A DNA stretch of 64,000 bases from an uncultured delta proteobacterium. Its GTDB lineage: Bacteria; Desulfobacterota; RBG-13-43-22. Made by a program: the position numbers and the translations under genes. Positions within the stretch are counted from its first letter, which is position 1; each line of letters opens with the position of its first letter. The DNA lies in assembly GCA_963843145.1 (NCBI GenBank), contig CAWJJC010000022.1, forward strand, positions 64,001 through 128,000, read 5' to 3'. Positions 55,952 through 64,000 of the stretch are shown in pieces. A model generated the notes under the pieces. That model saw nothing but the letters and a program-made list of their open reading frames with translations. It did no database searches and was not told where the DNA came from.

Positions 55952-56884
55952 ATGTATCACCCCAAGGATATCATCGAGATTCTGGCCGCGAATGTACGTC
56001 ATACCCGAAGCCCCTTCGGCACCCCGAAATTTTTGGTGAACAACTGGTGGAAAGAACTGGGGCTCAGAAAGCAGGGGGAGTCCCTGTTGTTTACGGGCCT
56101 GATGTACCAGTTTGTCCCTTATATTGAAAAGACCACCAGTTACCTGGAAAAATTTGAAGATCGGCCACTGGCCGAATGGCTGCGGTTTGGGCGGTATCAG
56201 CCTAAGCGATTGGCCGGCCTGGGGCTGGCCATGCTCATCCCCGGTGCGGCCAAAAAGAGCGCCCAGACCACTCTCCGGAATATTGCCCGCATCCTCACCC
56301 AATCCGGAGTGGACTTTTATTATCAACCGCGACTGGACGAATACAGTGGGATCCTGCTTTACGATCTGGGTGACCAGGAGAGCTTTGTGGCGCATGCCCG
56401 GTATGTGGCCGGCCGGCTAAAAAGAGCGGGAGTGCGAAAGATCATCACCGTGGACCCTCACACTACTTATGCCTTGAAGGTCCTCTATCCTCAATATACC
56501 GGGGAGCATTTTGAAGTGAGGACCTATTTTGAACTGGCCAAGGGTTCTCCCCAAAATGATCAAGGCCGGGTTACCCTCCATGATCCCTGTTTTTACGGGC
56601 GATATCTGGAATTGTCCGCTGCGCCGCGAAAGGCCCTGGAAAGGATAGGCATCGAATGCCTGGAGATCCGGAATTCCGGCACCTTCACCCAATGCTGCGG
56701 CGGACCGGCGGAGTCCATCTCTCCCCATCTGGCCCGGGAGGTTATGGAGCGCAGGGTGGAAGAGTTGAAAGCTACCGGTGCCCCTTTGGTGGCCATGTGC
56801 CCCATCTGCCTGGGCAACTTGAGAAAGTCCGGGGCGGAGGTGGAGGACCTGTCGACTATCCTGGCCCGCGGGCTTCCGGCTTGA
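55952..56884 (+). CDS. CCG-domain (HdrB/HdrD-like) Fe-S protein
   Basis: HDPCFYGR, CCGGP, CPIC; first CCG repeat degenerate (FTGLM, YSG, TVDPHT). Confidence 0.85.
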   Translation: MYHPKDIIEILAANVRHTRSPFGTPKFLVNNWWKELGLRKQGESLLFTGLMYQFVPYIEKTTSYLEKFEDRPLAEWLRFGRYQPKRLAGLGLAMLIPGAAKKSAQTTLRNIARILTQSGVDFYYQPRLDEYSGILLYDLGDQESFVAHARYVAGRLKRAGVRKIITVDPHTTYALKVLYPQYTGEHFEVRTYFELAKGSPQNDQGRVTLHDPCFYGRYLELSAAPRKALERIGIECLEIRNSGTFTQCCGGPAESISPHLAREVMERRVEELKATGAPLVAMCPICLGNLRKSGAEVEDLSTILARGLPA

Positions 56885-56968
56885 GGGTAGGCAAATTCTG
56901 GATTGGCTAATGTCTTTGAACGCTATTTTTCATAAAACCCATTTCTAAGCAAAGAAAGGAGCAGTATC

Positions 56969-59972: not shown

Positions 59973-60000
59973 TAGTTTTTCCTTTGGATAAAAAAGGTTC

Positions 60001-60064
60001 ACCCACCCCCCAACGTTCGGCTGAGCTCACGTCGAAGCCCCCCTTCCGTCAAGGGAGGGGGAGC
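60001..60064. repeat. REP-like element
   Basis: CCCACCCCC...TTCGGCTGAGCTCACGTCGAA...CCCCCTTCC-GTCAA-GGGAGGGGG. Confidence 0.5.
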
Positions 60065-60088
60065 AGGAAGCGTTTGAGGTTAGGGGTT

Positions 60089-60822
60089 CTACGAAGTTTT
60101 TAAGAACACCTTAATGGCCAATTCCCGGCCGCTGTCGGTTAAAAAAGATCGGTCAATGATCGCGGCCAGCCGTTCCGGGGATGAGGCCTTTTCTTTCTGA
60201 TTTTCTTCCAGGTTGACGATCAGGTCCGAGTCGTAGATCGCTTTGAAGTTGGTGGTTTCCTTCTCCCGGGGATGATGGTGATGGCCGACTATATCGCAGA
60301 CTTCCTCGATCAGCTCTTCCCGGGCGCCCAGTTTGGTCAGGATCTGTCGCGCAATCGGCGGGCCTTCTTCCTCCTGGTAGCGGGCGGCCGTGCTGTGGTA
60401 TTTCCTTTCCGCCTCATGGATGCCGATGTCGTGCAGATAGGCGGCTGAGAGGATCACCGCCGGGTTCCCTTTTTCTTTTCTGGCCAACTCCTCGGCATAG
60501 CGGGCCACCCGGGTGGCATGGCCGATCCGTTTGAAATCTGTGGTGAAGTAGCGCTTCATTTCAATGGCCACCCGGTCCTTTAACAGATCCTCTTTTTGGG
60601 CCATTAGTTCCGGGGGCAGCCCCCCAGGCACTGCTCGGCATGAGGGCAGTAAGAGGCGCAGCCGAAATCCATTTGGGGATTGATGATCCGCTTCCCGCAT
60701 TTCTTGCAGAGTCGGGTGGTGTCGTCTTTAAAGAACTCGAGCTCGGCGCCGCAATGGGGGCATTGGGTCTCGAAAATTGACCCGGGCTTCCAGTAGCGGC
60801 TGTCCTGTCCAGGGCATTTCAT
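60089..60822 (-). CDS. HD-domain phosphohydrolase with N-terminal Cys-rich zinc ribbon; 1-nt frameshift at about 60620-60625
   Basis: MKCPGQD...CPHC...CKKC...CASYCPHAEQCLG joins LPPELMAQ...RIGHA...LHDIG...HHH...DSD if one G is added. Confidence 0.88.
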
Positions 60823-60872
60823 AAAAAATCCTTTTATCCTTGAATTCGGGTTAATCCGTGATCGGGGTCCAT

Positions 60873-60900
60873 TAGGGGCGGGTTTTGAACCCGCCCCTAC
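60873..60900. repeat. GTAG-type REP / hairpin after hcp
   Basis: TAGGGGCGGGTT-TTG-AACCCGCCCCTAC. Confidence 0.65.
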
Positions 60901-60928
60901 GACAATCATTTATGAAAACAGGATTTTT

Positions 60929-62557
60929 TTAACCCAATATCGCCTTGAGATCCTCGTCCGGTGTGGTGATGGGCATGACGTTGAACGTCTTTACCAACAC
61001 ATCCAGGACATTGGGGGTGATGAAGGCCGGTAGGGAGGGCCCCAGCCGAATGTTCTTGATCCCCAGGTAAAACAAGGTCAACAAAATGGCTACGGCCTTC
61101 TGCTCATACCAGGAAAGGATCATGGACAAGGGTAGGTCATTGACCCCCACGTTAAAGGCCTTGGACAAGGCCACAGCGATCTGGATGGCCGAATAGGCAT
61201 CATTGCACTGCCCCACGTCCAGGAGGCGCGGGATCCCGCCGATATCTCCCAATTCTTTGTCAAAAAACCGGAACTTGCCGCAGGCCAGGGTGAGGATGAC
61301 CGAATCTTTGGGCGCTTTTTCCACAAACTCGGTGTAGTAGTTTCGGCCCGGTTTGGCCCCGTCGCAACCGGCTACGAGGAAGAAGTGACTGATCGCCTTG
61401 TTCTTGACCGCCTCGATCACCTGGCCGGCCACGCTCATCACGGTGTTCCGGCCGAACCCGACGGTGACCGTTTTCCCGTTGCTGTCTTCCGCAAATCCAG
61501 GCAGGGCCAAAGCCTTTTCGATAACCGGAGCAAAGTCTTTCCCGGCAATATGGGCGACGCCGGGGAAGCCCACCAATCCCGTGGTGAAAATATTGGCCTG
61601 GTAGGATTCCTTGGGCTTCTGAATGCAGTTGGTGGTCATCAGGATGGCCCCGGGAAACTCGCCGAACTCTTTGTGCTGATTCTGCCAGGCCGTCCCATAA
61701 TGGCCATAGAAATGGGCATACTTTTTCAATGCAGGATAACCGTGGGTGGGCAGCATCTCGCCGTGGGTATAAACATTAATCCCTTTGCCTTCGGTCTGTT
61801 TCAGGATCAGTTCCAGGTCTTTCAGGTCATGGCCGGAAACCAGGATGGCCTTGCCCTTTTTATGCCCTAGGGGAACCTTGGTTGGTACGGGATGTCCGTA
61901 GGTTTCCGTATTGGCTGCATCCAGGATTTCCATGGCTTTTAAATTGGCCTCGCCGCATTTCAAGGTCAGGCCCACCCAGTCGTCCAAGGTCAGGTCTTTG
62001 TTCAGGGCGGCGGCCAATCCTTCATGGATAAAGGCATAGACGGACTCATCTTCCTTGCCCAAGATCTGGGCATGGTCAGCGTAAGCGGCGACCCCCTTAA
62101 TCCCGAAAGTGACGGTCCAAATCAGCGCGTGAATATCTCTATCCGTAGTGGTATCTGATTGAATTCCAACCTTTTCTCCCTGGGCGATCATTCCCTCCAG
62201 GGTATCGGCCAGGATTAAATCCGCCGGTCCCTTCGGAAAATCCACTTTTCCGCCGGCCGCTTTCACCTTGGCTTTCAATTTTTCCCGCAGGGCCACGGTC
62301 TCTTTCAGTAAAGGAGCGAACCGCTCGGCGTCAAAATCGACATTGGTCAAAGTCGAAAACAAGGCCTTGACGGTAAAAATATTGGCCTCCGGGTCGCTGA
62401 TGCCCACCTTCCGGCCTTCCACTGCCACCTGGGACAAGCCCCGCATGGCATACACGACCAGATCCTGCAGGGCGGCTACTTCGGGTTGCTTTCCGCAGAC
62501 CCCGACTTTGGTACAGCCTTCCCCTTTGGCGGTTTGTTCACATTGATAACAAAACAT
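60929..62557 (-). CDS. hcp: Hybrid cluster protein (hydroxylamine/NO reductase)
   Basis: MFCYQCEQTA..GC...GVCGK, SGHDL, THGEML, GCDG, LACGK, GQCND, SWYEQKA. Confidence 0.97.
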   Translation of the reverse strand: MFCYQCEQTAKGEGCTKVGVCGKQPEVAALQDLVVYAMRGLSQVAVEGRKVGISDPEANIFTVKALFSTLTNVDFDAERFAPLLKETVALREKLKAKVKAAGGKVDFPKGPADLILADTLEGMIAQGEKVGIQSDTTTDRDIHALIWTVTFGIKGVAAYADHAQILGKEDESVYAFIHEGLAAALNKDLTLDDWVGLTLKCGEANLKAMEILDAANTETYGHPVPTKVPLGHKKGKAILVSGHDLKDLELILKQTEGKGINVYTHGEMLPTHGYPALKKYAHFYGHYGTAWQNQHKEFGEFPGAILMTTNCIQKPKESYQANIFTTGLVGFPGVAHIAGKDFAPVIEKALALPGFAEDSNGKTVTVGFGRNTVMSVAGQVIEAVKNKAISHFFLVAGCDGAKPGRNYYTEFVEKAPKDSVILTLACGKFRFFDKELGDIGGIPRLLDVGQCNDAYSAIQIAVALSKAFNVGVNDLPLSMILSWYEQKAVAILLTLFYLGIKNIRLGPSLPAFITPNVLDVLVKTFNVMPITTPDEDLKAILG

Positions 62558-62666
62558 GATCGATCTCCTTTCTTTGATTAAAGTTAGGTTCAATTAATTC
62601 GGAACCAACAGGGCCCGTTTAAACGTCATTTACGTTTAATAATAAGGCGACAACCGCCGAATTGCC

Positions 62667-62680
62667 TTGATTTAAGTCAA
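62667..62680 (-). promoter_or_regulatory. HcpR/FNR-type binding site of hcp
   Basis: TTGATTTAAGTCAA; with -10 TATTAT (minus strand, 62644-62639) its centre falls at about -41.5. Confidence 0.8.
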
Positions 62681-62833
62681 CGAACGGAAGTTAAAGTGCA
62701 AGAAAAATCGGGAAAGAGATCGATGGTTAAAATAAAACTAATAATAACAAGTTAATACATCCGGCCATGGCACGCAAGGGAAACGCGGAAAATTAAATTT
62801 TATTTTCCCCATTTTTTTCTTGATTTCTCTAGA

Positions 62834-62867
62834 AATCAACATATAAATGTTTATTTATATGTTGATT
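62834..62867. promoter_or_regulatory. ArsR/SmtB-type operator
   Basis: Perfect 15-bp inverted repeat AATCAACATATAAAT-GTTT-ATTTATATGTTGATT upstream of arsR. Confidence 0.8.
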
Positions 62868-62927
62868 ATTTCAACGGTTGATTTCAAGAATCAGGAATAC
62901 CTAATGATCAATAAGAGCAGAAACAAA

Positions 62928-63284
62928 ATGAGCGGGGAAGAGGCTGAGGCTTACCCGGAGGAGATAGGAAACCAAGAGGAAGGGGAACAGTCCCTCTCCA
63001 CGGTGGCTTTTTTAGCCAAAAGCCTATCGGATGAAAACCGTTTGCGGGTGCTCCTCAGTCTGCGCCAGGGCCGGCTTTCGGTATCCAGCCTGGTGGAGGG
63101 CTTACAATTGTCCCAACCGCTGATTTCACATCATTTAAAGGAATTAAAAAGGTCGCTTCTAGTCAAGGTCGAGCGCAATGGGCCATTTATCTATTACGAA
63201 CTGGCCGATAAAAGAATCCTTCAGATCATGAAAGACCTGGGGACCGTGGCCGGGGAATTACTGGCCAACCGTCGAACTTTTTAG
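62928..63284 (+). CDS. ArsR/SmtB family transcriptional regulator
   Basis: KSLSDENRLRVL, LSQPLISHHLKELK, VERNG..IYY. Alternative start at 62904. Confidence 0.92.
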   Translation: MSGEEAEAYPEEIGNQEEGEQSLSTVAFLAKSLSDENRLRVLLSLRQGRLSVSSLVEGLQLSQPLISHHLKELKRSLLVKVERNGPFIYYELADKRILQIMKDLGTVAGELLANRRTF

Positions 63285-63299
63285 TCAGGAGAACAGCCG

Positions 63300-63755
63300 A
63301 TGCCTGGAAAAACGATACTGGAATTAATCGAGAAACTCGAGCCGGAAAAAGCCTTAAAAGAAATTTCTCTGGCGGTCAAAACCCTTTTCCCCTTGCTGGA
63401 TCAGGAGTCCCGGCTGAATTTTGTGGTCAGCCTGATCGGGGATGCCGGAGCGGACAAGGTGGCCAGCCTGGTGAACCTCTGACTGGCGGAATGCCTGGAC
63501 GAAGGTGTCGATCCAACCAAGATGTGCCAGAGTCTAGTGGATAAGGTTTTTCAATCGAAACAGTTAAGAACCGTGGCCGAACCGGATATTTTAGTGCTTT
63601 TTGAAGACTGGCTGGAGGAATTGGAAGAGGAAATCATAAAACAGGTGCAAAAAATCGGTCCCAACGATCTGGGGAAATTGGCTCGAGGGTTGGGGTTGTC
63701 CCAGGCCGGCGTAAATTTCCTGATCACCAAATTAAAGCGGGAAGAAAGGATTTGA
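63300..63755 (+). CDS. Candidate selenoprotein, 151 aa, U61xxxC65, C-terminal HTH-like segment
   Basis: The two tracked ORFs 63300-63482 and 63522-63755 are in frame and separated only by TGA 63480-63482; a SECIS-like hairpin follows. Confidence 0.72.
63496..63515 (+). promoter_or_regulatory. Putative bacterial SECIS element
   Basis: TGGA-CGA-[AGGTG]-TCG-A-TCCA; the apical loop starts 20 nt after the UGA with G at its second position. Confidence 0.6.
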
Positions 63756-63795
63756 AAGAAAAAGGGCCCTGAATTATTTGGCGGAGGTGTTCTTT

Positions 63796-64000
63796 ATGAA
63801 CCATAAAACCATATTTATTGCCGCCCTCTCAGTGGCTCTGGTAATCGGGGTTCTCTGGTTTACCAACCGGGCCGTAACCCCAACGGCGGCTACCTGGGAA
63901 GATGTTCTCCAGGAAGCCCAGCGCGGCGGCTATCGGATTATCAAGACGGATGAGATCTGGGAACGGGTTCAAAAAAATCCACAGAACCTGATGCTGGTGG
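63796..64000 (+). CDS. Exported/membrane-anchored rhodanese-like protein (5' part only)
   Basis: MNHKTIFIAALSVALVIGVLWF...EAQRGGYRIIKTDEIWER...NLMLV, with SD GGAGG; resembles a rhodanese N-terminus. Active site is outside the window. Confidence 0.6.
   Translation, partial: MNHKTIFIAALSVALVIGVLWFTNRAVTPTAATWEDVLQEAQRGGYRIIKTDEIWERVQKNPQNLMLV

Follow-up and report, generated by a model that had tools for sequence, protein, structure and literature searches.

The split reading frame upstream of a rhodanese-like gene in an uncultured delta proteobacterium is tsoA, a selenoprotein gene of a known family with a conserved intracoding hairpin

Introduction

Several selenoprotein families are grouped under the name Tso, for "three selenoprotein operon." The tabulated entries of a 2026 review (PMC13188914) list TsoA, TsoB, TsoC, TsoX, and TsoY with their accessions, give LULAxC as the motif of TsoA (NF045695), UxxxxU as that of TsoB, and GxxU as that of TsoC, and credit the Tso families to Haft & Tolstoy, mSystems 2025. 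The same table includes many selenoproteins of the thioredoxin fold with UxxC or CxxU motifs. A full-text literature search for TsoA together with selenoprotein found nothing besides this review.

Here, we analyze a Tso locus in a 64,000-nucleotide stretch of DNA from an uncultured delta proteobacterium (positions 64,001 to 128,000 of contig CAWJJC010000022.1, assembly GCA_963843145.1), which we refer to as the window. A preliminary description of this stretch had presented one gene near its end as a candidate new selenoprotein. The gene belongs to a family that was already curated as NF045695 (TsoA) and that appears in the tables of PMC13188914, drawn from Haft & Tolstoy 2025; indeed, family, motif, and operon are all already known and curated (NF045695, NF045694, NF045708, and NF045707). 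Below, we compare the locus with these families and weigh what its product may do.

Results

Two open reading frames form a single selenoprotein gene

The gene and its internal UGA codon are placed as follows.

63300 to 63755, plus strand: tsoA, a single gene (151 codons and a stop codon), placed by its NF045695 match and an alignment of 30 homologues
63480 to 63482, plus strand: UGA read as selenocysteine (U61), a TGA in all 95 distinct segments of homologous genes

Under translation table 11, this region holds two open reading frames (ORFs) in the same frame, one of 60 amino acids (63300 to 63482) and one of 77 (63522 to 63755), divided by the single TGA at 63480 to 63482. Reading that TGA as U yields a protein of 151 amino acids, ...KVASLVNL-U61-LAE-C65-LDEGVDPTKM-C76..., which is terminated by the TGA at 63753 to 63755. 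The ATG at 63300 is preceded by AGGAG 8 nt upstream, and inspection of the sequence found no Shine-Dalgarno-type motif ahead of the ATG at 63522, in agreement with the preliminary description of the second ORF.

The joined protein scores 224.4 bits against the NCBIfam model NF045695, "LULAXC motif selenoprotein TsoA" (cut-off, 170), and the alignment runs end to end, placing residues 6 to 149 on model positions 1 to 144 of 144. The LULAxC motif corresponds to L60-U61-L62-A63-E64-C65, with the U supplied by TGA, and the U column is invariant across the 30 aligned sequences. We found no difference from TsoA as modeled by NF045695: the motif is the same, the score covers the full length, and the partners are TsoR, TsoB, and TsoC. 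A Pfam search of TsoA returned no domain over threshold. The 60- and 77-amino-acid ORFs are thus a single selenoprotein gene, tsoA, of a known family. The source genome, of 5.35 Mb, has one copy of tsoA. Elsewhere, the gene can be multicopy: genome G169 has two copies, and G051 has four, arranged as two neighboring pairs and spread over two contigs. Another ORF of the window, 55952 to 56887, was considered as a selenoprotein gene on account of "one odd TGA" and was rejected, since that TGA is its ordinary stop.

The UGA codon is conserved in two samples of homologues

Homologues were collected in two ways. In the sample chosen through TsoA, which covered 401 genomes of the phylum, 40 genomes had a match to NF045695, and in 30 of them the match was over the cut-off. 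Among the 45 matches in these 401 genomes, 41 contain exactly one TGA and 4 contain none; the latter are partial, distant relatives and not Cys forms. At the 30 loci inspected, out of the 41 TGA-bearing matches, U always occupies the same alignment column (30/30). Conservation is strong on both flanks of the UGA, and V58, U61, L62, A63, C65, E68, G69, D71, P72, M75, and C76 are invariant in the 30 homologues.

The second sample consisted of 80 loci picked via TsoR and not via TsoA, all titled Desulfobacterota or "delta proteobacteria" except three labeled Pseudomonadota. A TsoA gene directly follows TsoR in 74 of the 80, and each of the 74 has TGA at codon 61. The two samples overlap by nine genes; in their union of 95 distinct gene segments, codon 61 is TGA in every case (95/95) and never TAA or TAG.

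No homologue with Cys at position 61 was found among the 45 matches from the 401 genomes or the 80 TsoR-chosen loci, so the pairing of Sec and Cys forms is missing here. Cys-form homologues are a usual discovery criterion for selenoproteins and not a requirement, and TsoA seems to exist solely in the Sec form.

The remaining six TsoR-chosen loci comprise four with a damaged tsoA (L078, L089, L125, and L090) and two with a different gene after TsoR (L119 and L121). The tsoA copy of L078 is truncated at the U codon. In L089 and L125, an in-frame deletion has removed the whole U/C core of tsoA beside an intact-looking tsoB, and the deletion in L090 extends into tsoC. One of the 74 loci with TGA, L075, carries an additional in-frame stop at residue 74. 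All five damaged copies are in loci of metagenome-assembled genomes (MAGs), and they may be real or may be assembly errors.

The machinery for selenocysteine is encoded in the source genome, where the preliminary description had proposed to look for it: selA (609 bits), selB (369 bits), selD (395 bits), and a tRNA-SeC with anticodon tca are all present. The selD gene (G000 C27:447576-448499, outside the window) itself has one in-frame TGA, so SelD is here a selenoprotein form.

A covarying hairpin lies downstream of the UGA

63496 to 63515, plus strand: SECIS hairpin with a 7-bp stem, 98.5% of alignment cells paired, with a covarying pair and frozen synonymous sites

The hairpin had already been proposed, with its apical loop 20 nt from the UGA, and it holds as described, with the addition of one bulged base (A63511). 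It starts 13 nt downstream of the UGA. The 5′ arm (TGGACGA) spans 63496 to 63502, the apical loop (AGGUG) spans 63503 to 63507, and the 3′ arm is made up of 63508 to 63510 and 63512 to 63515. The whole element is inside the coding sequence, at codons 66 to 72 (L/M-D/G-E-G-V-D-P among the homologues and L-D-E-G-V-D-P here).

The minimum free energy of the surrounding 81 nt (63470 to 63550) is no better than that of shuffled sequences (z = 0.09), and an Rfam search of 60000 to 64000 at E values up to 10 gave five chance-level hits, none of them at the hairpin. Thus, the case for the hairpin must be a comparative one. In the 30-sequence alignment, the seven pairs are 98.5% paired, versus 19 to 40% for slid controls. 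At the pair 63499/63512, this alignment has A-U in 18 distinct rows, G-C in 11, and a broken pair in none. In the 95 distinct genes it is A-U in 34, G-C in 61, and broken in 0; these sequences are kin, and the switch may trace to few events. The A-U/G-C label needs three changes on the best protein tree, with just one change forced by well-supported branches, and the number of independent switches is uncertain (1 to 5). Position 63499 falls at the middle base of codon 67, which is GAC (Asp) or GGC (Gly), and position 63512 falls at the third, silent base of codon 71, which is GAT or GAC; GAC at codon 67 pairs with GAT at codon 71, and GGC pairs with GAC. The amino acid change D67G is therefore always met by a synonymous change.

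Within the hairpin, codon usage departs sharply from that elsewhere in these genes. GAA is used in 30/30 sequences versus a background of 54%, GGT in 29/30 versus 12%, xTC in 30/30 versus 27% for GTC, and CCA in 23/30 versus 5%. Synonymous sites in the loop and the stem are frozen, showing a constraint on the hairpin at the level of RNA. A lower stem, formed by 63483 to 63488 with 63525 to 63530, was also considered; it is 83% paired with no compensatory change, and we do not claim it. The hairpin appears to share with the fdhF-type SECIS of Escherichia coli an intracoding position shortly 3′ of the UGA, G/U in the apical loop, and a bulged base. It differs from the fdhF type in sequence, and it had no bacterial SECIS match in Rfam.

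The conservation of the TGA, the pairing of the hairpin, and the Sec machinery in the genome together identify tsoA as a real selenoprotein gene, in line with the preliminary description, which had proposed one UxxxC selenoprotein gene with a SECIS hairpin. Each of the refuting conditions that this description had set for itself turned out in its favor. The opposing explanation is that the region encodes no selenoprotein and consists of two small genes or of one gene broken by a nonsense mutation. Table 11 does split the frame, and the few damaged copies in MAG loci show broken genes of this family, but a nonsense mutation or a gene boundary fits poorly with a codon that is never TAA or TAG, with protein conservation on both of its sides (C65, E68, G69, D71, P72, M75, and C76 being invariant downstream), with a covarying hairpin, with an internal ATG that has no Shine-Dalgarno motif, and with a genome that encodes the Sec machinery. 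We consider this explanation almost inconceivable.

TsoA is predicted to be all helical with an HTH-like end

An AlphaFold model of TsoA built from the 30-row alignment is all helical and of moderate quality (mean pLDDT, 69.8; pTM, 0.39). This model places U61 and C65 on one helix, spanning residues 51 to 67, with a spacing of four residues. The pLDDT falls below 50 at residues 64 to 92, around the motif, and is good again at 95 to 147. The sequence contains no signal peptide, so TsoA should be cytoplasmic.

A Foldseek search of the model against the PDB gave no match at an E value of 0.001 or better. In local Foldseek comparisons, the C-terminal ~45 residues superpose on helix-turn-helix (HTH) domains of Lrp/AsnC, Z-alpha, ArsR, and MntR proteins, including winged-helix forms, with root mean square deviations of 1.3 to 1.8 Å; the probabilities are 0.9 to 0.98 and the E values are 0.8 to 3, and the best E value in the search is 0.25, with no match significant. 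The Pfam family HTH_24 scores 14.0 bits on TsoA, below its threshold of 21.9, and the protein has no wing, ending straight after the third helix. On these superpositions, the "HTH" of the preliminary description is a fair name for the predicted C-terminal shape and for the shape only.

With the thioredoxin-fold UxxC and CxxU selenoproteins TsoA shares a Sec near a Cys in a short motif, a likeness that suggests a selenenylsulfide. Unlike them, TsoA is predicted to be all helical, with U-x3-C within a helix, has no Pfam domain, and has no Cys-form homologues among those we found. U61, C65, and C76, all of them soft ligands and all invariant, point to either a selenenylsulfide redox centre or a thiophilic binding site.

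The tso operon and a possible link to TsoB

63796 to 64000, plus strand: 5′ end of tsoB, a rhodanese/DsbD-like fusion selenoprotein gene (NF045694, 56.3 bits on the 68 amino acids within the window)

The preliminary description had placed the gene in an operon of the order arsR, selenoprotein, rhodanese, and its neighbors bear this out: tsoR lies upstream (63284 is its last base) and tsoB starts downstream at 63796. Read past the window end, the contig has the order tsoR-tsoA-tsoB-gcvH-related-tsoC-tusE/dsrC-like, followed by a gene on the opposite strand. The products TsoR, TsoB, the GcvH-related protein (NF045810; 246 bits), TsoC, and the TusE/DsrC-family protein (TIGR03342; 66 bits) all score above the cut-offs of their own models. 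Further in-frame TGA codons, which the preliminary description had suggested looking for downstream, are present in two of these genes. The tsoB gene extends ~1.5 kb beyond the window end, and both of its UGA codons are outside the window; the full protein scores 1024.6 bits against NF045694 (cut-off, 805), with its 2 TGA codons in FYUAGLTUV. TsoC (NF045708; 143.6 bits; cut-off, 45) has 1 TGA, in NEPNGKPU. The Tso cluster is widespread in Desulfobacterota, and tsoA is its first structural gene.

The TusE/DsrC-family protein (L009 3481-3810, contig C22, outside the window) has the C terminus ...CKIAGIPKLETGYTLM. Of the two Cys in the C-terminal arm of DsrC, it appears to keep the inner one and to lack the penultimate one. 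On the other side of the locus, a hybrid-cluster protein/hydroxylamine reductase gene (60932 to 62557, minus strand; NF003658, 832 bits) is divergent from tsoR, and farther upstream are genes for a ferredoxin-like protein, a DJ-1/PfpI family protein, and an HDIG-domain protein, the last at 27.4 bits, just below its cut-off of 27.6.

TsoB consists of an N-terminal membrane anchor, a rhodanese domain that contains FYUAGLTUV, a membrane part resembling DsbD (residues 184 to 574 score 238 bits against DsbD), and a C-terminal thioredoxin domain with WCTPC. In DsbD systems, the partner of DsbD is thioredoxin. TsoA could take the place of thioredoxin, as a cytoplasmic carrier of redox equivalents or of sulfur or selenium that feeds the DsbD-like domain; by this route, the thioredoxin and Sec-Sec rhodanese domains of TsoB in the periplasm would receive reducing power or a chalcogen. 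The architecture of TsoB fits such a role, as do the lack of a signal peptide on TsoA, the spacing of U61 and C65 on a predicted helix, and the presence in the operon of GcvH-like and TusE/DsrC-like carrier proteins. Against it, TsoA does not have the thioredoxin fold, TsoB is absent beside TsoA in 7 of 30 loci (one of the seven ends at a contig edge), and L089 and L125 keep their intact-looking tsoB even though the U/C core of tsoA is deleted in frame. We treat this carrier role as tentative, with a real if minor chance of being right.

A cysteine-less regulator precedes tsoA

62834 to 62867, no strand assigned: perfect 15-nt inverted repeat, AATCAACATATAAAT-N4-ATTTATATGTTGATT, at a distance of 36 nt before the ATG of tsoR
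62904 to 63284, plus strand: tsoR, ArsR/SmtB-type regulator of 126 amino acids (NF045707); the start at ATG 62904 is not certain

TsoR scores 154.6 bits against NF045707, "ArsR/SmtB-type metalloregulator TsoR" (cut-off, 115), and 76.9 bits against NF033788 (cut-off, 55), with a match to Pfam HTH_5 at an E value of 2.6e-11. The TsoR of the window contains 0 Cys, and in an alignment of 30 homologues no column that is invariant or almost so holds a Cys; thus, TsoR lacks a thiolate (cysteine) sensing site. The gene lies directly upstream of TsoA, on the same strand, in 30/30 loci, whereas TsoB follows in just 23/30.

The inverted repeat at 62834 to 62867 is a likely candidate for the TsoR operator. 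In 18/30 loci, its core, ATATAAAT-N4-ATTTATAT, recurs with at most 3 mismatches within the 330 nt ahead of tsoR, and it has 24 matches across all 99,304 nt of the 30 loci.

The four TGA-less matches to NF045695 bear on the role of TsoA as well. These Sec-less relatives are 86 to 125 amino acids long (L043 2362-2739, L045 904-1278, L046 845-1219, and L044 1022-1282) and match NF045695 at E values of 9e-15 to 8e-11 over model positions 44 to 144 or shorter. They have in common with TsoA the C-terminal half, with ...MC/MF-Q...FEEWxKxLEDEI... and an HTH-like end. Unlike TsoA, they have no U and no LULAxC, and their N terminus is Met rich (for example, MDMGMMKEMMG). An ArsR-type gene whose product is 34 to 42% identical to TsoR lies upstream in three of the four, and in two of these three ArsR-bearing loci (L045 and L046) a 72-amino-acid membrane protein is encoded between the ArsR gene and the relative. 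No TsoB was found near the relatives in the four loci. From its model coordinates (44 to 144), the match in G119 was considered as a homologue in which a sense codon occupies the Sec position, and it was rejected, as it is a Met-rich protein without the motif. The Sec-less relatives possibly represent a wider family of ArsR-linked small proteins.

One explanation for this arrangement is that TsoA serves TsoR as a ligand- or redox-sensing partner, either a co-regulator or an adaptor. In that case, U61/C65/C76 of TsoA would bind the signal, and its HTH-like end would act on TsoR or on DNA. Since TsoR always comes first, has no conserved Cys, and has counterparts among the ArsR genes that the Met-rich relatives follow, such a role is worth testing; the superposition of the modeled C terminus on HTH domains of Lrp/AsnC, ArsR, and MntR is consistent with it. 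However, it is common for operons to place a regulator ahead of the first structural gene, the resemblance to HTH domains lacks significance (E values of 0.25 or worse, Pfam score below the cut-off), and TsoA stops after the third helix with no wing. We rate a sensing partnership with TsoR as unlikely.

Another explanation is that TsoA is a chaperone or buffer for a metal or metalloid such as As(III), Hg(II), or Cu(I), which would be bound by one selenolate and two thiolates. Three invariant soft ligands and a regulator of the ArsR/SmtB type would suit this function, and so would relatives in which Met-rich stretches replace the core, as Met-rich stretches can bind Cu(I) and Ag(I). Yet no metal or metalloid transporter or reductase was seen in the operon, and its rhodanese, DsbD-like, DsrC-like, and GcvH-like members point instead to sulfur/selenium and redox chemistry. 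A metal-buffering role is, in our judgment, highly doubtful.

Discussion

We are highly confident that tsoA is one gene of the Tso operon whose UGA codon 61 encodes selenocysteine through a SECIS hairpin, and we infer that its U61/C65/C76 centre works with TsoB and/or TsoR. In the mechanism that we favor, SelB and tRNA-Sec would decode the UGA as directed by the hairpin at 63496 to 63515. The product would be a cytoplasmic, all-helical protein of 151 residues that carries the invariant U61-x3-C65 on one helix, together with C76, and ends in three helices resembling an HTH. U61, C65, and C76 would make up a centre for redox chemistry or for thiophilic ligand binding, which may cooperate with the membrane protein TsoB in transferring electrons from the cytoplasm to the Sec-Sec rhodanese in the periplasm, and/or with the cysteine-less regulator TsoR.

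For the catalogue of selenoproteins, this locus adds little, as a curated NCBI model already names the gene. A true Sec gene and its SECIS were nonetheless recognizable from the raw sequence alone in the preliminary description. Our additions are modest, comprising a TsoR that has no conserved Cys and always comes first, a conserved palindrome upstream of it, and the Met-rich relatives, and Haft & Tolstoy 2025 may already cover some of them. They offer handles for functional tests in two cultured carriers, Desulfoprunum benzoelyticum DSM 28570 and Desulfoferrobacter suflitae DRH4.

A more speculative view, which we hold to be distinctly unlikely, is that TsoA is not an enzyme and that it forms a two-protein switch with TsoR, in which TsoA would be the subunit that senses by means of selenocysteine. 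The cysteine-less TsoR would be the repressor, bound to the conserved ATATAAAT-N4-ATTTATAT palindrome, and TsoA, with U61/C65/C76 and its HTH-like end, would confer the response to a sulfur, selenium, or metalloid signal. If this were true, the Met-rich relatives would be the same device adapted to another ligand, and TsoA would belong to a wider, undescribed family of accessory sensors for ArsR-type regulators.
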